From Escherichia coli (GTDB lineage Bacteria; Pseudomonadota; Gammaproteobacteria; Enterobacterales; Enterobacteriaceae), in assembly GCF_044324875.1 (NCBI RefSeq), contig NZ_CP172185.1: a stretch of 64,000 nucleotides of DNA. One strand, given 5' to 3'. Shown in pieces: positions 9,901-62,216 of this stretch (position 1 is the first letter of the stretch; the number at the start of each line of letters is the position of its first letter). The translations under genes were made by a program, and so were the position numbers. Under the pieces are notes generated by a model. The model had not been told where the DNA came from, ran no database searches, and was given only the letters and a program-made list of their open reading frames with translations.

Positions 9901-9926
9901 TGCCGGATAAGCCTCGCTTTCCGGCA
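9901..9926. terminator. Hairpin between convergent cyaY and cyaA
   Basis: Inverted repeat tgccgga...tccggca between the two stop codons. Confidence 0.5.
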
Positions 9927-17004: not shown

Positions 17005-17604
17005 ATGTCAAAATTGCGCACGCCGTCCCGCTATCTTTTTCGCTTGCCATCGCATGAAATTACTCCTTTTCGGGCAACGCTCTTTTTAATCTTGTTGATA
17101 TGTGCCGCTCTGGCTGGCGTAAGTTGGCTGATTATTTCCTTTGTGCGTACGGGCAATACATTCATCTTCTGGTTAACACTTTTTATTGGGTATCTGATAG
17201 CTGCGGCGAAGCAGGAAAAAATCAAGCTCCTCAAGAAGTACCGAATCATGGCAGATAAACGTCGGGGACGCTCCATTTGCCAGTTCGCCCGCGAATTTGA
17301 CACCTACACCGTAGATACATGGGTGATTCGTGCGGTGTGGGATACCTTGCAAGGAAACGGTTATATCGATTACCCACTGCCACTGAAAGCCGATGATATA
17401 CTGGACGATGATCTGGATTTGGTGAGCGACGCAGTCGAGTTAGAAGAGCTGGTTGAAGATACCGCTGCTCGTTGCGGGCGCGATCTATGCGGAATAGAAG
17501 AGAATCCGTTTCTTCCCATCGTCACGGTAGGCTCTCTTGTAAGAGTGTTAAACGCGCAACCGATGACCCAGGAGCGACGTAACCAGTTCTTTATCCGGTC
17601 ATAA
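17005..17604 (+). CDS. Hypothetical protein (199 aa), predicted membrane-anchored with acidic C-terminal region
   Basis: Uninterrupted ORF with coding-like composition; hydrophobic N-terminal segments; acidic stretch DDILDDDLDLVSDAVELEELVED; weak RBS at 17005; stop abuts the glmZ terminator. Confidence 0.4.
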   Translation: MSKLRTPSRYLFRLPSHEITPFRATLFLILLICAALAGVSWLIISFVRTGNTFIFWLTLFIGYLIAAAKQEKIKLLKKYRIMADKRRGRSICQFAREFDTYTVDTWVIRAVWDTLQGNGYIDYPLPLKADDILDDDLDLVSDAVELEELVEDTAARCGRDLCGIEENPFLPIVTVGSLVRVLNAQPMTQERRNQFFIRS

Positions 17605-17809
17605 AAAAACGCCTGCTCTTATTACGGAGCAGGCGTTAAAACAGGTCTGTATGACAACAAGTGGGTGCTTCACTCAACGTTGTGTCCATGGTGTCTGATG
17701 AGGCATAAGCGACATCTGTCAGTGGACGATAAGCACCGTAAACGGCTCTGCGTCATTCCGGAGTTTATGAGGCACTAAGGCGAACATAAGAGATGGAATG
17801 AGCATCTAC
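17603..17809 (-). ncRNA. glmZ: GlmZ small regulatory RNA
   Basis: Minus-strand sequence matches remembered GlmZ from 5' GTAGATGCTCATTCCATCTC through the terminator GCCTGCTCCGTAATAAGAGCAGGCGTTTTTTT; lies between hemY and aslA. Confidence 0.8.
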
Positions 17810-18233: not shown

Positions 18234-19889
18234 ATGGAATTTTCGTTTTCACCCAAACTTCTTGTTGTAGCTGTCGCCGCCGCTCTTCCTCTCATGGCCA
18301 GCGCAGCAGATACCCCGTCAACCGCCACCGCACGCAAAGGCTTTGCCGGATACGATCACCCAAACCAGTATCTGGTTAAACCGGCGACCACTATTGCCGA
18401 CAACATGATGCCGGTGATGCAGCATCCTGCACAAGACAAAGAAACCCAGCAGAAGCTGGCAGAACTTGAGAAAAAAACCGGTAAGAAACCGAACGTGGTT
18501 GTTTTCTTGCTGGATGATGTGGGCTGGATGGATGTTGGCTTTAACGGCGGTGGCGTGGCGGTGGGTAACCCTACACCAGATATCGACGCCGTTGCCAGCC
18601 AGGGGCTGATTTTAACTTCGGCGTATTCTCAACCGAGTTCTTCCCCAACCCGCGCCACGATTCTTACCGGACAATACTCCATCCACCACGGCATTCTGAT
18701 GCCGCCAATGTACGGGCAACCGGGCGGTCTGCAAGGGTTAACCACTCTGCCGCAGTTGCTGCACGATCAGGGCTACGTCACTCAGGCCATCGGGAAATGG
18801 CATATGGGGGAAAACAAAGAGTCGCAGCCGCAGAACGTTGGCTTTGATGATTTCCGCGGTTTTAACTCGGTATCCGATATGTATACCGAATGGCGTGATG
18901 TTCACGTCAACCCGGAAGTCGCCCTGAGCCCGGATCGTTCTGAATACATCCAAAAACTGCCGTTCAGCAAAGATGACGTTCATGCCGTGCGCGGCGGTGA
19001 ACAGGAAGCCATTGCCGACATTACGCCGAAATATATGGAAGACCTGGATCAACGCTGGATGGAATATGGCGTTAAGTTCCTCGACAAGATGGCGAAGAGC
19101 GATAAGCCTTTCTTCCTCTACTACGGCACTCGCGGCTGTCACTTCGATAACTACCCTAATGCGAAATATGCGGGTAGCTCTCCGGCGCGCACCTCTTACG
19201 GCGACTGCATGGTGGAGATGAACGATATCTTCGCCAATCTGTATAAAGCACTGGAGAAAAACGGTCAGCTTGATAACACGCTGATTGTGTTCACCTCTGA
19301 TAACGGTCCGGAAGCCGAAGTTCCGCCGCACGGTCGCACACCGTTCCGCGGTGCGAAAGGTTCTACATGGGAAGGCGGCGTTCGTGTGCCAACCTTCGTT
19401 TACTGGAAAGGCATGATCCAACCGCGTAAATCTGACGGCATTGTCGATCTGGCGGATCTCTTCCCTACGGCGCTGGATCTGGCGGGGCATCCTGGGGCGA
19501 AAGTAGCGAATTTAGTACCGAAAACCACCTTTATCGATGGTGTGGACCAGACATCTTTCTTCCTGGGAACAAATGGTCAGTCTAACCGTAAGGCCGAGCA
19601 CTACTTCCTCAACGGTAAACTTTCTGCTGTGCGTATGGATGAGTTCAAGTATCACGTCCTGATCCAGCAACCGTACGCGTATACCCAGAGCGGGTATCAG
19701 GGTGGATTCACCGGCACAGTAATGCAAACGGCGGGATCGTCGGTGTTTAACCTGTACACCGATCCGCAGGAAAGCGACTCTATCGGCGTGCGCCATATCC
19801 CAATGGGTGTACCGCTACAGACCGAAATGCATGCGTATATGGAGATCCTGAAAAAATATCCACCACGCGCGCAGATTAAATCTGATTAA
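18234..19889 (+). CDS. aslA: Arylsulfatase-family protein AslA
   Basis: 551-aa ORF with signal peptide and sulfatase motifs ([11 protein letters not shown] region). Confidence 0.9.
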
Positions 19890-19917
19890 GCCGGCGCTAT
19901 CGCTGAGATCAACCTTT

Positions 19918-19943
19918 GCCGGATGCGATGCTGACGCATCCGA
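19918..19943. repeat. REP-like palindromic element
   Basis: gccggatgcgatgctgacgcatccg palindrome between convergent aslA and aslB; same 23-mer at 41438. Confidence 0.6.
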
Positions 19944-19979
19944 CAATCAACCGCAGGCGGCCACAAAATGGCTGCTATT

Positions 19980-21215
19980 TTACTTATTCACCACCAGCAA
20001 ATGCGCCTGCATAATGTCGCTGGCCGGACGACCGTGCGCCAGCAAATCAACCATTGCTTTAAGATATGGCGGTAGATGGCGGAAATAACGCTGATACCCG
20101 GCACACAAATAATTCAGCCCGGGTTTGCCGCTGGCATCGAGCATAAAGCGGTGTTTCGGGCAGCCTCCCCAGCACGCTTTTAACACGTTGCAACTGCGAC
20201 ACTGTGCCGGTAACTGCTTGAATTTATCTTCACCAAATGCCTGCTGTTGCGGGGAATCAATCATTTCTGCAATTGTCTGCTGAAGCATATTCCCCAGTCG
20301 ATATTGCGGATAAACATAGTGATCGCAGGCGTAAACGTCGCCGTTGTGTTCAACAATCACCGAGCGCCCACAGGTTGGCTGATGATGGCAAACCGCTCCT
20401 GGCGCACCGACAAAATTGGCAAACGCCCATTCGATATTCATCACGAAAATATTGCCGACGTCGCGTTTGATCCAGTGGTCGAATATCGCCACCAAAAATT
20501 CACCGAACTCCTCGGGGTGTACCGACCATTCCGTCAGTTCGCCCTGAATATCGCCGGGACCATGTAGCTTAAGTCCAGCATGAACAGCCGTTTCATCAGC
20601 CAGGCGTTCGACCACAGGAATAAACTGGATAAACTCAACGCCTGCATCACACAGAAAATCATAGATTTGCAAAGGTTGTAACGCACTGGTGCGATTTACG
20701 CAGACCAGCGCGTTATAGTCGACATGATGTTTTTGCAGGAGCGTCAGGGCACGCATCACCAGCTTATGCGTTGGTCTGCCGCCTTTGGTCACGCGATATT
20801 GATTGTGGATCTCAGCCGGACCATCCAGCGATAACCCAACAAGGAAATGATTTTCTGCCAGAAATGCACACCATTCGTCATCAAGCAGAACGCCGTTAGT
20901 CTGGAAGCTGTTACTTATCTTCCTGCCAGCACCATATTTCGCCTGTAGCGCCACGGCACGGCGGTAAAAATCCAGCCCGAGTAACGTTGGTTCGCCGCCC
21001 TGCCAGGTAAAAGCCACTTCGTTTTGGGTTTCGCTGGCAGCGATATAGTGACGGACATACGCTTCCAGCGTGTCATCGTCCATATGCGTGACTGGCTTTT
21101 CGCGGTAAAGGGATTGTTTTTCGAGATAAAAACAGTAGTCACAGTTCAGATTACAATCGGAACCGCTCGGTTTCGCCATCACATGAAAAGCACGCGTTGG
21201 AACCTGTTGCAGCAT
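19980..21215 (-). CDS. aslB: Anaerobic sulfatase-maturating enzyme homolog (radical SAM)
   Basis: Translation from MLQQVPTRAFHVMAKPSGSDCNLNCDYCFY with the CxxxCxxC radical SAM motif; track ORF extends 10 codons upstream. Confidence 0.85.
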   Translation of the reverse strand: MLQQVPTRAFHVMAKPSGSDCNLNCDYCFYLEKQSLYREKPVTHMDDDTLEAYVRHYIAASETQNEVAFTWQGGEPTLLGLDFYRRAVALQAKYGAGRKISNSFQTNGVLLDDEWCAFLAENHFLVGLSLDGPAEIHNQYRVTKGGRPTHKLVMRALTLLQKHHVDYNALVCVNRTSALQPLQIYDFLCDAGVEFIQFIPVVERLADETAVHAGLKLHGPGDIQGELTEWSVHPEEFGEFLVAIFDHWIKRDVGNIFVMNIEWAFANFVGAPGAVCHHQPTCGRSVIVEHNGDVYACDHYVYPQYRLGNMLQQTIAEMIDSPQQQAFGEDKFKQLPAQCRSCNVLKACWGGCPKHRFMLDASGKPGLNYLCAGYQRYFRHLPPYLKAMVDLLAHGRPASDIMQAHLLVVNK

Positions 21216-21361: not shown

Positions 21362-21438
21362 TGGTCGGCGAGAGAGGATTCGAACCTCCGACCCACTGGT
21401 CCCAAACCAGTTGCGCTACCAAGCTGCGCTACTCGCCG
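21362..21438 (-). tRNA. proM: tRNA-Pro (anticodon UGG)
   Basis: Reverse complement gives CGGCGAGTAGCGCAGC...anticodon loop with TGG...TTCGAATCC...CCA. Confidence 0.9.
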
Positions 21439-21480
21439 AAATACTGCTTTTTGAATTTTTAGTTCAATTCTTTAAAGTCG

Positions 21481-21567
21481 TGGTGCGAGGGGGGGGACTT
21501 GAACCCCCACGTCCGTAAGGACACTAACACCTGAAGCTAGCGCGTCTACCAATTCCGCCACCTTCGC
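21481..21567 (-). tRNA. leuT: tRNA-Leu (anticodon CAG)
   Basis: 87-nt class II tRNA GCGAAGGTGGCGGAATTGGTAGACGCG...long variable arm...CCA. Confidence 0.9.
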
Positions 21568-21587
21568 ATTGTCACAACTTCTAATAA

Positions 21588-21664
21588 TGGGGTGGCTAAT
21601 GGGATTCGAACCCACGACAACTGGAATCACAATCCAGGGCTCTACCAACTGAGCTATAGCCACC
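21588..21664 (-). tRNA. hisR: tRNA-His (anticodon GUG)
   Basis: GGTGGCTATAGCTCAGTTGGTAGAGC...GTG anticodon...CCA with the extra 5' G. Confidence 0.9.
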
Positions 21665-21721
21665 ACTACAAATCTTGTTACGCGGTATTACTACCACCGC
21701 AGCTCAAGCGCCGGGACTAAA

Positions 21722-21798
<77 letters not shown>

Positions 21799-38082: not shown

Positions 38083-38412
38083 TTACGCCAGGTTAGCGTC
38101 GAGGAACTCTTTCAACTGACCTTTAGACAGTGCGCCCACTTTGGTTGCCGCCACTTCACCGTTTTTGAACAGCAGCAGAGTCGGGATACCACGGATACCA
38201 TATTTCGGCGCAGTGCCAGGGTTTTGATCGATGTTCAGTTTTGCAACGGTCAGTTTGCCCTGATATTCGTCAGCGATTTCATCCAGAATCGGGGCGATCA
38301 TTTTGCACGGACCGCACCACTCTGCCCAGAAATCGACGAGGATCGCCCCGTCCGCTTTGAGTACATCCGTGTCAAAACTGTCGTCAGTCAGGTGAATAAT
38401 TTTATCGCTCAT
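38083..38412 (-). CDS. trxA: Thioredoxin 1
   Basis: Translation [18 protein letters not shown]...WCGPC... (109 aa) matches TrxA. Confidence 0.97.
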
Positions 38413-38542
38413 ATATAACTCCACAGGAATAAGCCTGGCGTGTTGGTTTCGTTGTTGGTGTAACATTAACCAACTAAAGGTTGACTTTATTTCACCGGAT
38501 ACGCTTTCGTAAAGCAATAGTAAGCTGATATTCTACCACACT

Positions 38543-39943: not shown

Positions 39944-41428
39944 ATGGGTTCCACCTCGTCGCTGTATGCAGCCATTGATCTCGGTTCGAATAGTTTTCAT
40001 ATGCTGGTTGTGCGCGAGGTGGCTGGAAGCATCCAGACGCTGACGCGAATTAAACGCAAAGTGCGTCTGGCTGCTGGCCTGAACAGCGAAAATGCCCTCT
40101 CTAATGAAGCAATGGAGCGCGGTTGGCAATGTTTGCGCCTGTTTGCTGAACGTCTGCAAGATATCCCTCCCTCGCAAATTCGCGTTGTCGCTACGGCGAC
40201 ATTACGACTAGCCGTCAATGCGGGTGATTTTATCGCCAAAGCACAGGAAATCCTTGGCTGCCCGGTACAAGTCATCAGCGGTGAAGAAGAAGCCCGCCTG
40301 ATTTATCAGGGGGTGGCCCACACAACAGGCGGTGCCGATCAGCGCCTGGTGGTGGATATAGGCGGTGCCAGTACTGAACTGGTAACCGGCACGGGTGCAC
40401 AAACCACCTCGTTGTTCAGCCTGTCGATGGGCTGCGTCACCTGGCTGGAACGCTATTTTGCCGATCGTAATCTGGCGCAGGAAAATTTTGATGCTGCAGA
40501 AAAAGCGGCACGCGAAGTGTTACGTCCGGTTGCCGATGAATTACGGTATCACGGCTGGAAAGTGTGCGTTGGCGCTTCCGGCACCGTGCAGGCGTTACAG
40601 GAAATCATGATGGCACAGGGGATGGATGAACGCATTACCCTGGAAAAGTTGCAGCAACTGAAACAGCGAGCCATTCATTGCGGTCGGCTGGAGGAACTGG
40701 AGATTGACGGGCTGACGCTGGAACGTGCGTTAGTGTTCCCGAGTGGTCTGGCAATCCTGATAGCCATTTTTACCGAACTGAATATTCAGTGTATGACCCT
40801 GGCAGGTGGTGCGCTGCGTGAAGGCCTGGTCTACGGCATGTTGCATCTGACCGTCGAGCAGGATATTCGCAGCCGTACGCTGCGTAATATTCAGCGCCGC
40901 TTTATGATCGATATTGATCAGGCACAGCGCGTAGCCAAAGTTGCGGCTAACTTCTTCGATCAGGTGAAAAACGAATGGCATCTTGAAGCAATAAGCCGCG
41001 ATTTGCTCATCAGCGCCTGCCAGCTTCATGAAATCGGCCTGAGCGTTGACTTCAAACAAGCGCCGCAACACGCTGCTTATCTGGTACGTAATCTGGATCT
41101 TCCCGGTTTTACCCCCGCACAGAAAAAACTGCTGGCGACGCTACTGCTCAACCAGACTAACCCGGTCGATCTCTCATCGCTGCATCAGCAAAATGCCGTA
41201 CCGCCGCGCGTCGCAGAACAACTCTGCCGTTTACTACGCCTGGCCATCATTTTTGCCAGCCGTCGTCGTGACGATCTCGTGCCAGAGATGACATTACAGG
41301 CTAACCATGAACTGTTGACCTTGACGCTTCCGCAAGGTTGGCTAACCCAACATCCGCTGGGTAAAGAGATTATTGATCAGGAAAGCCAGTGGCAGAGCTA
41401 TGTCCACTGGCCGCTGGAAGTGCATTAA
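39944..41428 (+). CDS. gppA: Guanosine pentaphosphate phosphohydrolase
   Basis: Translation from [22 protein letters not shown] (Ppx/GppA family), 494 aa. Confidence 0.95.
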
Positions 41429-41437
41429 TGAGTAAGT

Positions 41438-41470
41438 GCCGGATGCGATGCTGACGCATCTTTTCCGGCC
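41438..41470 (+). terminator. REP-like hairpin, probable gppA terminator
   Basis: gccggatgcgatgctgacgcatc followed by tttt; same 23-mer as 19918-19940. Confidence 0.6.
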
Positions 41471-41474
41471 TTGA

Positions 41475-43496
41475 TTATTTCCCTCGTTTTGCCGCCATCA
41501 TCGCTTTCAGATTCGCCAGATGGCTTTGCCCTTTCTGCATCCGTTCTTCGGCGCTGACCACTTTGCGCTCCTGTTCCCAAATCAGATCATCCTGCGGCAG
41601 CTCCAGCAGGAAGCGGCTCGGCTCCGGGCGCACCAGTTCGCCGTACTGACGGCGTTCTTTACACAGCGTAAAGGTCAATTCCTTCTGGGCGCGGGTAATG
41701 CCGACATAGGCCAGCCGCCGCTCCTCATCGATATTATCTTCATCGATGCTGCTTTGGTGCGGCAAAAAACCTTCTTCCATACCGACCATGTAGACATAAG
41801 GAAACTCCAGCCCTTTCGACGCGTGGAGAGTCATCAGTTGCACCTGATCCAGCTCTTCTTCACTCTCACCACGCTCCATCATGTCGCGCAAAGTAAAGCG
41901 CGTCACCACCTGGGTGAGCGTCATCGGCTCATCCAGTTCGCTGCCCTCCAGCATCTCCGTCATCCAGCTAAACAGTTGGTTGACGTTCTTCATGCGCATT
42001 TCGGCGGCTTTCGGGCTGGGCGATGTTTCGTACAGCCAGGATTCATAATCCATGCCGTGGATCAGATCGCGCACCGCGGCAATCGGCTCCCGCTCCGCCA
42101 GACGCTGGATTTCTGCCAACCAGTGAGTGAAGCGGGTCAATGCTTCATAACCACGTCCGCTAAGCGTCTGACTCAGGCCCATATCAAAGCTGGCGGTAAA
42201 CATGCTTTTATTGCGCGTCATCGCCCACTCACCCAGCTTTTTCAGCGTCGCCGGGCCAATCTCTCGCTTCGGCGTGTTAACGATACGCAGAAATGCGCTG
42301 TCATCGTCCGGGTTAGTCAGCACGCGCAGATAAGCCAGCAAATCCTTGATTTCAGGACGAGAGAAAAACGACGTACCACCGGATATTTTGTACGGGATGC
42401 GGTTTTGCATCAGGAATTTTTCAAACACCCGCGACTGATGGTTGCCGCGATAAAGAATGGCGTAATCTTTGTACTGCGTTTTATTGACGAAGTGATGCGC
42501 GATCAGCTCGCCGGTAACTCTCTCGGCTTCATGTTCTTCGTTATTCGCGCTTAAAACTTTTAGCTCCGCGCCATAGCCCAGTTCGGAGAACAGACGCTTT
42601 TCAAAGACGTGCGGGTTATTGGCGATCAGGATGTTCGCCGCTTTCAGAATACGTCCGGAAGAGCGGTAGTTCTGCTCAAGCTTAATCACCTTCAGTGCCG
42701 GGAAATCCTGACTCAACAGCACCAGGTTTTGCGGACGTGCACCGCGCCAGGAGTAGATCGACTGATCGTCATCGCCAACTACGGTAAAGCGCGCGCAGCT
42801 GCCCACCAGCAGTTTCACCAGTTCATACTGGCTGGTGTTGGTGTCCTGATACTCATCCACCAGCAGGTAGCGAATTTTGTTCTGCCAGCGTTCACGAACT
42901 TCTTCATTGCGTTGCAACAGTAACGTCGGCAATAAAATCAGATCATCGAAGTCGAGAACGTTACAGGCTTTCAGGTGTGCATCATACAGCCCATAACAAT
43001 GGGCAAAAATACGGTCCCGCTCGCCCTTTGCCTCTGCCGCCGCCTGCGCCGGAGTTTTGAGATCGTTCTTCCAGTTGGAGATGGTCGAAATCAGCTGTTG
43101 CAGGAGAACTTTGTCATCTTCAATCAGCCCCTCGGTCAGCTCTTTAAGCAAAGCAAGCTGATCGGTATCGTCAAACAACGAGAAGTTTGCTTTCATCCCA
43201 AGCGCCGCATACTCGCGTTTGATGATATCCAGCCCCAGTGTGTGGAAGGTGGAGATCATCAGCCCACGCGCCTCTTTGCGACCCAACGTCTGCCCGACAC
43301 GCTCTTTCATCTCGCGCGCCGCCTTATTGGTAAAGGTCACCGCCGCGATATGTCGCGCCTGATAACCGCAACCGCGGATCAGATGGGCGATTTTATTGGT
43401 GATGACACGAGTTTTACCGGAACCCGCGCCTGCCAGCACCAGGCAGGGGCCGGTAACGAATTCGACAGCTTGTTGTTGGCCGGGGTTTAGACGCAT
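41475..43496 (-). CDS. rep: ATP-dependent DNA helicase Rep
   Basis: Translation from [31 protein letters not shown] (673 aa), UvrD/Rep superfamily I helicase. Confidence 0.95.
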
Positions 43497-57075: not shown

Positions 57076-57083
57076 AATTAGGG

Positions 57084-57160
57084 TGGCGGAACGGACGGGA
57101 CTCGAACCCGCGACCCCCTGCGTGACAGGCAGGTATTCTAACCGACTGAACTACCGCTCC
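57084..57160 (-). tRNA. aspT: tRNA-Asp (anticodon GUC)
   Basis: GGAGCGGTAGTTCAGTCGGTTAGAATACCTGCCTGTCACGCAGG...CCGCCA. Confidence 0.9.
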
Positions 57161-57212
57161 ACCGAATTCTTTTACAACCACCGGTTTTATGACCGGCTTA
57201 CTGCTTAATTTG

Positions 57213-57332
57213 ATGCCTGGCAGTTCCCTACTCTCGCATGGGGAGACCCCACACTACCATCGGCGCTACGGCGTTTCACTTCTGAGTTCGGCATGGGGTC
57301 AGGTGGGACCACCGCGCTACGGCCGCCAGGCA
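57213..57332 (-). rRNA. rrfC: 5S ribosomal RNA
   Basis: 120-nt match to E. coli 5S rRNA (TGCCTGGCGGCCGTAGCGCGGTGG...GGAACTGCCAGGCAT). Confidence 0.95.
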
Positions 57333-57424
57333 AATTCTGTTTATCAGACCGCTTCTGCGTTCTGATTTAATCTGTATCAGGCTGAAAATCTTTCTCTCAT
57401 CCGCCAAAACATCTTCGGCGTTGT

Positions 57425-60329
<2,905 letters not shown>

Positions 60330-60513
60330 TCACAACCCGAAGATGTTTCACTTCAGAGTTGCGAAAATTTGAGAGACTCACGAACAACTTTCGTTGTTCA
60401 GTGTTTCAATTTTCAGCTTGATCCAGATTTTTAAAGAGCAAATATCTCAAACAAGACTTAACAGTCTGTTTTGAGATATTGAGGTCGGCGACTTTCACTC
60501 ACAAACCAGCAAG

Positions 60514-60589
60514 TGGCGTCCCCTAGGGGATTCGAACCCCTGTTACCGCCGTGAAAGGGCGGTGTCCTGGGCCTCTAGACGAAGGGGAC
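60514..60589 (-). tRNA. gltU: tRNA-Glu (anticodon UUC), 16S-23S spacer tRNA
   Basis: GTCCCCTTCGTCTAGAGGCCCAGGACACCGCCCTTTCACGGCGGTAACAGGGG...CGCCA. Confidence 0.9.
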
Positions 60590-60674
60590 GTATCAGTCTG
60601 CTTCGCAAGACGCCTTGCTTTTCACTTTCTATCAGACAATCTGTGTGAGCACTGCAAAGTACGCTTCTTTAAGG

Positions 60675-62216
<1,542 letters not shown>

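Follow-up and report, generated by a model that had tools for sequence, protein, structure and literature searches.

Repetitive extragenic palindromes (REPs) of Escherichia coli are assigned by length to the y (35 nt), z1 (29 nt), and z2 (37 nt) types, and about 60% of them lie between convergent genes, according to the literature. There they are described as partial Rho-dependent terminators and as stabilizers of mRNA, usually without a poly-U tract, and convergent gene pairs with REPs are reported to show higher expression genome-wide. The RAYT transposase (TnpA_REP) needs the GTAG motif for binding and cleavage, as well as a mismatch in the stem (PMC3333891; PMC8266576), and cleaves CC|TAC in vitro; an in vivo system for observing its activity was still to be developed when Ton-Hoang et al. 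(2012) wrote. The insertion sequence IS1397 inserts specifically into REPs (PMC1525189), and polymorphism of bacterial interspersed mosaic elements (BIMEs) among E. coli strains was described by Bachellier et al. (1997), as cited in PMC3333891. Most recently, the supplement of Harris et al. (bioRxiv 2026 preprint) catalogued individual K-12 REPs, including REP286 at 3962701-3962736 (listed as 'Convergent', rep|gpp).

The DNA analysed here, hereafter the window, is a 64-kb stretch of an E. coli-like chromosome that is 98-99% identical to most E. coli genomes. A search of the whole window returned exactly two copies of the 23-mer GCCGGATGCGATGCTGACGCATC, both on the + strand (19918-19940 and 41438-41460), and no further copies at up to three mismatches. 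Chance similarity of the two copies was rejected, as 100 dinucleotide-preserving shuffles gave 0 matches. The maximal exact repeat measures 24 nt (19917-19940 and 41437-41460), the identity extending by one base (T) on the left and by none on the right. As the first-pass annotation had proposed, each copy sits at a convergent-gene junction: one between aslA (+, ending at 19889) and aslB (-, ending at 19980), and the other between gppA (+, ending at 41428) and rep (-, encoding DNA helicase Rep, ending at 41475), both gene pairs being identified from open reading frame lists and annotated E. coli genomes. Its description of these sites as REP elements is borne out by a 37-nt z2 architecture and by a match of the gppA/rep copy to REP286, and both copies are extragenic, as REPs are; 'typical', however, describes neither, because both are without GTAG/CTAC and the aslA/aslB copy is a chimeric remnant of a deletion. 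The two copies very probably belong to a single low-copy REP sub-family of z2 architecture that has long been fixed in convergent gaps and is immobile, the aslA/aslB member being a collapsed BIME. No Rfam family was matched at either copy at the gathering threshold, and the RefSeq K-12 tables hold no repeat features in either gap.

Elsewhere in the window, Rfam matches at the gathering threshold comprise the GlmZ sRNA (17603-17809), a cluster of four tRNAs (21365-21798), the TrxA 5'-UTR thermometer (38383-38482), the family 'Rev39 5'UTR' (53492-53781), and an rrn operon (16S, tRNA, StyR-44, 23S, 5S) followed by two tRNAs (57003-62216). A further hairpin with a REP-like foot, GCCGGATAAGCCTCGCTTTCCGGC, lies in the convergent gap between cyaY and cyaA (9902-9925), and it appears, not labelled as a REP, in row 315 (cyaY:cyaA) of the bidirectional terminators in the supplement of Harris et al.

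The gppA/rep site carries a complete element. Here the 23-mer (41438-41460, +) supplies the 5' arm, the inner stem, and the loop of a REP hairpin, TGCCGGATGCGATGCTGACGCATCTTTTCCGGCCTT(G), which spans 41437-41472, with the 37-nt unit reaching 41473. The hairpin takes up 36 of the 46 bp between the two stop codons, its first stem base lying 9 nt downstream of the gppA stop (41426-41428, +) and its last stem base 5 nt from the rep stop (41475-41477, -), and the whole 46-bp gap is identical in K-12 MG1655. On either strand the element folds in two tiers, with an outer stem (41438-41443 with 41464-41469, GCCGGA/UCCGGC) and an inner stem (41447-41451 with 41456-41460, GAUGC/GCAUC) separated by a 3x3 internal loop and closed by the apical loop UGAC (TGAC, 41452-41455); the predicted energies are -21.5 kcal/mol (z -5.1) on the + strand and -21.6 kcal/mol (z -6.8) on the - strand. 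The K-12 range of REP286 maps onto window positions 41437-41472, and the label is used here in the sense of that catalogue: both the kind of element and its location were already on record.

A classification against known REP families, which had been proposed as a check, placed the gppA/rep copy among the z2 REPs. In an ungapped 37-nt alignment with the z2 units of the BIMEs that flank rayT in K-12, the length and the pairing scheme (12 pairs) are equal, 23 columns are invariant, and the differences fall in two compensatory pairs and in the loop; pair 5-30 is G-C in the gppA/rep REP and U-A in K-12 z2, and pair 13-22 is U-A rather than C-G. Paired cells make up 96.7% of this alignment, as against about 28-42% when the partners are slid. 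The gppA/rep element (41437-41473) is thus, like z2 REPs and REP286, an imperfect palindrome of 30-40 nt, 37 nt long with a 7+5 bp stem interrupted by an internal mismatch and a 4-nt loop. It departs from the K-12 z2 sequence in its foot (GCCGGAT/ATCCGGC for GCCTGAT/ATCAGGC) and its inner stem (GATGC/GCATC for GACGC/GCGTC), both changes being compensatory, in the replacement of TTAT by TTTT, at the cost of one stem pair, and in the GTAG-equivalent position (41470-41473, - strand), which reads CAAG (CTTG on the + strand), two substitutions away from GTAG. Judged from sequence, the foot of the sub-family, GCCGGAT/ATCCGGC, is y-like, on a 37-nt z2 architecture.

An independent mark of identity comes from E. 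coli MS 16-3, in which IS1397 sits exactly in the apical loop of the gppA/rep REP, with the 4-bp target TGAC duplicated on both sides. This insertion, by an insertion sequence specific to REPs, supports the assignment of the gppA/rep element as a REP. The MS 16-3 copy of IS1397, a member of the IS3 family, has its transposase gene annotated as frameshifted.

Across strains, 5417 of 5426 E. coli genomes carry the gppA/rep REP, with 99% identity or more over 101 nt in 4248 of those 5417, and two genomes from outside E. coli (Escherichia sp. E1V33 and MOD1-EC7003) have it in identical form. With the same 101-nt query, about 21% of genomes show 95-99% identity. The B2/ST131 allele, a common one found in JJ1887, reads GACACATTTTTTCC; two substitutions in the inner stem (at the equivalent of window positions 41456-41460) weaken the predicted fold to -16.2 kcal/mol, as against -21.5 kcal/mol, and extend the T-run to six bases. 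Such weakening of the stem points to only weak constraint on the gppA/rep REP. If the E. coli representative in the species collection carries the B2 allele, the missing exact match at gppA/rep in that genome would be explained.

The aslA/aslB copy has a different history, which an alignment of the window, K-12, O157, and a third allele makes legible. In K-12 and O157 this gap holds a two-REP BIME composed of an inverted z2-type REP (TGCCGGATGCGATGCTGACGCATCTTATCCAGCCTAC), a 34-nt L-type linker, and a y REP (GTAGGCCGGATAAGGCGTTTACGCCGCATCCGGCA), which together fold into a single long hairpin of -68.7 kcal/mol. The window differs from this intact BIME by the absence of 77 bp bounded by CGCATC direct repeats, and a deletion between these repeats, simulated in the O157 allele, reproduces the length of the window allele exactly (131 nt), leaving seven point differences. 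Since the simulated deletion recovers that length, the right end of the 23-mer is best read as a deletion junction, and the alignment and the simulation place the 6-nt CGCATC microhomology at 19935-19940 (+). Parsimony and the presence of intact BIMEs in E. whittamii and E. coli E69 argue that the 77-bp difference arose by deletion; insertion of a BIME into a pre-existing palindrome was rejected as the less parsimonious direction.

What remains at aslA/aslB in the window would accordingly be two REP ends: the 24-nt 5' part of the inverted z2-type REP (19917-19940, +), the rest of that REP, the linker, and most of its partner having been deleted, and the 3' end of the former y-type REP (19935-19947, +; CGCATCCGACAAT in the window and CGCATCCGGCAAT in K-12). 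Lost are the 3' part of the first REP, its CTAC, the L linker with its IHF-like site, the GTAG, and most of the y REP. The 77-bp deletion from CGCATC to CGCATC would have left the 5' part of one REP joined directly to the 3' end of its partner, giving a near-perfect hairpin, stripped of the GTAG motifs and of the IHF-type linker, whose arms derive from two different REPs (CGGATGCG-ATGCTGA-CGCATCCG, 19920-19942, -13.7 kcal/mol). Where a REP has a palindrome with an internal mismatch, the copy at 19917-19945 therefore shows a chimeric 8-bp hairpin that is almost perfect; the position of GTAG disappeared with the deletion, and CTAC stands there in the intact aslA/aslB alleles and in a copy between lspA and fkpB.

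Comparison with BIMEs that carry an L-type linker (BIME-1, RIP-like, or 'atypical' BIMEs, as at K-12 aslA/aslB and yaaX/yaaA) likewise marks the window hairpin as derived, given that its flanks and both retained REP ends align while 77 bp are missing and a single hairpin is left. The linker of the yaaX/yaaA BIME resembles that of K-12 aslA/aslB (25 of 35 aligned positions identical), and the latter contains the IHF-like motif ATTCAATAAATTG with one mismatch, a match of which 0.63 would be expected by chance and which, though not significant alone, agrees with an L-type linker. The parent BIME was itself atypical rather than a canonical BIME-1 (definitions in PMC3333891), its first unit being of z2 rather than z1 length. 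Taken at the two sites, the window contains one hairpin each and no BIME, whereas the BIME is present at aslA/aslB in K-12, O157, WL297, E69, and E. whittamii. A separate terminator-like hairpin lies closer to aslB (19956-19986, +; GGCGGCCACAAAATGGCTGCT followed by ATTTTACTTA), and this hairpin with its T-run is probably the more plausible aslA terminator in the gap. The terminator-like hairpin on the aslB side is polymorphic, reading GGCGGCCGCCGATTTC in K-12, 9 nt shorter, and GGCG(G/A)CCACAAAATGGC(T/C)GCT in the window and O157.

The window-type collapse is one of several aslA/aslB alleles, and the gap is a hot-spot of rearrangement. It occurs in roughly 12-18% of complete E. coli genomes (5/40 and 7/40 in two sets of evenly spaced rows), among them an ST131 strain. 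A second haplotype, seen in WL297, E69, and E. whittamii, carries the BIME in the opposite orientation relative to its flanks, which, apart from point differences, fits an inversion between the 11-bp terminal inverted repeats TGCCGGATGCG and CGCATCCGGCA. The flank on the aslA side also differs between the two orientations (ACATCGGGCCACACTGACC versus GAGATCTGCCTT), a difference for which the inversion does not account. Within the inverted haplotype, E. coli WP5-S18-ESBL-07 shows a second, independent collapse to a single REP; removing 73 bp between ATCCGGC direct repeats from the WL297-type allele yields this form, save for a few point differences. Lastly, in about 30% of complete E. coli genomes (12/40 evenly spaced rows), aslA is deleted from approximately codon 46 through the first REP, so that only the linker and the y REP are left; in E. 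coli strain 81 the junction joins window position 18372 to the K-12 linker (...ccagtatc|cacagaacgctgc), a few bases from the CTAC end of the inverted REP and close to the CC|TAC position cut by TnpA_REP in vitro, but with no clean C|T joining. That the REP hairpins themselves drive rearrangement at this natural hot-spot, through either the RAYT nuclease or hairpin-promoted slippage, is a speculative reading that we regard as improbable; if the transposase were responsible for these junctions, they would record RAYT activity in vivo as natural footprints.

The lineage of the window itself is rare. Among 5,426 complete E. coli genomes, one genome per 1-kb test reached at least 99% identity (strain N3 for the test at gppA/rep and NZ_OZ547136 for that at aslA/aslB), and the remaining genomes lie mostly at 95-99%, with about a quarter at 90-95% in the aslA/aslB test. 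In the window, a non-B2 gppA/rep REP allele occurs together with the collapsed form of aslA/aslB, the latter found also in ST131.

The age and mobility of the sub-family bear on the first-pass suggestion that exact identity reflects a recent common origin. Its abundance was bracketed by three BLAST settings and one scan of a collection of species genomes. Per E. coli genome, the median is at least 35 places for relatives of z2 type (E<=10), the high copy number characteristic of REPs; 16 for relatives within the sub-family, which differ by no more than about three mismatches over the first 30 nt; and 3 (also 3 in MG1655) for places with a 28-nt exact word of the 37-mer consensus, a count that leaves out the gppA/rep copy, with just 26 nt in common. 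The perfect 37-mer is found, in the K-12 lineage, between lspA and fkpB. The scan of 100,044 species-representative genomes gave only 8 stretches with the exact 23-mer, all from Escherichia, at 1-3 copies per genome: at gppA/rep in Escherichia sp. E1V33 and MOD1-EC7003, at aslA/aslB in E. coli strain E69 and E. whittamii, at gsk/ybaL in three genomes, and at one further site elsewhere.

A recent duplication, in which the RAYT transposase (TnpA_REP) spread a still active mobile REP or REPIN (a REP doublet that it mobilizes) to both sites, might be argued from the exact 24-nt identity, from the low copy number of the variant (about 3-4 near-perfect copies per genome), and from the fact that E. 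coli encodes rayT, which is flanked by y/z2 BIMEs of the same sequence family as the window copies. Nevertheless, this account is highly improbable: the same sequence stands orthologously in place at both sites in K-12 and O157, occupancy is shared by E. whittamii and E69 at aslA/aslB and by E1V33 and MOD1-EC7003 at gppA/rep, and the right end of the identity is a deletion junction and not an element boundary. Because both sites are occupied in K-12, O157, and other Escherichia species, the shared origin is old; on these comparisons the copies are older than the diversification of the genus and stem from a common sub-family rather than from a recent duplication, and the suggestion of recent origin does not hold. 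Mobility meets a similar objection, in that the gppA/rep copy has CAAG in place of GTAG, the aslA/aslB copy has neither GTAG nor the stem mismatch, both of them requirements of TnpA_REP, and neither copy has the inverted partner of a REPIN. In view of the published requirements of the transposase, both window copies are predicted to be inert to it and to persist as immobile relics.

The tttt that the first-pass annotation noted after the gppA copy is present (41461-41464, +), but its proposed role as the gppA terminator is not upheld: the T's lie in the internal loop, save the last, which opens the 3' outer arm, and the consensus terminator scan made no call at 41438-41470. A Rho-independent terminator formed by the 23-mer hairpin and TTTT would resemble intrinsic terminators in having a GC-rich hairpin directly after the stop codon and some T's beyond the inner stem, and the folding of successively longer gppA transcripts does predict a weak, transient 7-bp hairpin (GGAUGCG-AUGCUGA-CGCAUCU, -8.7 kcal/mol), with UUU behind it, for as long as the REP lacks its 3' arm; the T-run is also longer, TTTTTT, in the B2 allele. 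However, once CCGGC has been transcribed, the RNA is predicted to refold into the full REP (-18 to -21 kcal/mol), which engulfs the U's, so that the GC-rich hairpin lacks the immediate free U tract of an intrinsic terminator. There are, moreover, just four U's at this site, the first of them in a G-U pair, and at aslA/aslB the 23-mer has no T-run at all. Harris et al. name a few coincidental intrinsic terminators ('REPt'), REP286 not being among the names, and the gppA/rep hairpin is absent from the listed rows of the bidirectional-terminator table in their supplement; nor did its sequence turn up among the supplementary-table entries listed by Harris et al. or by the RepRanger paper. Among the entries listed in the supplements of Adams et al. 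(2021), no mapped 3' ends fall at 39627xx or at 39844xx/39845xx, a weak negative. Intrinsic termination at gppA/rep is therefore unlikely. Rho may offer another route: the supplement of Harris et al. lists an in vitro Rho-binding region at K-12 3962712-3962817 (+, the rep-sense strand) that overlaps REP286 by 24 nt.

By analogy with REPs in general, REP286 may act on the RNA emerging from either side. Transcribed from gppA or from rep, it would form a stable two-tier hairpin at the 3' end of the respective mRNA; as a 3'-UTR hairpin it could block 3'-to-5' exonucleases, and by pausing RNA polymerase it could favour partial, Rho-assisted termination, which would reduce read-through into the antisense of the convergent partner. 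With its start 9 nt past the gppA stop and 5 nt past the rep stop, it could also hinder ribosomes that are terminating: REPs less than 16 nt from a stop codon can lower translation (Liang, Rudd and Deutscher, 2015, as related in PMC12306157), and the gppA/rep copy lies within that distance of both stops, although the effect is here only predicted from spacing, whereas the aslA/aslB copy lies 27-30 nt from the aslA stop. Selection on these elements is likely to be weak, given that the stem of the B2 allele is weakened and that the aslA/aslB gap tolerates several very different alleles.

Weak selection might shade into none. The possibility that both copies are neutral relics of REP spread, decaying slowly in permissive 3' convergent gaps with no present selected function, is a tenable if less likely one: besides the stem-weakening substitutions of the B2 allele, it draws on the IS1397 insertion tolerated at gppA/rep, on at least five structurally different alleles at aslA/aslB (including full loss of the first REP), and on the statement, in the legend to Fig. 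4G-H of Harris et al., that terminal REPs have no general effect on mRNA half-life. Set against it are the retention of the gppA/rep REP in nearly every E. coli genome and its identity in two other Escherichia genomes, the in vitro Rho-binding region that overlaps REP286, and the higher genome-wide expression of convergent pairs with REPs. A role at the level of DNA rather than of RNA hairpins, through binding of gyrase, IHF, or DNA polymerase I or through structuring of the nucleoid, appears decidedly remote. Gyrase, Pol I, and IHF are known to bind REPs and BIMEs (PMC1525189; PMC3333891), and the K-12 aslA/aslB linker is of the L type shared with the yaaX/yaaA BIME and carries the IHF-like motif; yet the window allele has lost that linker, the motif is not significant alone, the gppA/rep element is a single REP with no linker, and Harris et al. 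report neither REP-REP chromosomal contacts nor a nucleoid effect for their model REP. The reading as old, immobile members of one sub-family, with a possible RNA-level role for REP286, thus remains preferred.

For annotation, the hairpin at gppA/rep is best recorded as a REP (REP286) and not as an intrinsic terminator, and that at aslA/aslB as a collapsed BIME. More generally, an 'exact repeat' may stop where a deletion has joined two sequences, and not where an element ends. REP and BIME sites are well known to vary between strains, and a clear example is the aslA/aslB gap, which might find use as a typing marker or as a test system for REP-mediated rearrangement.
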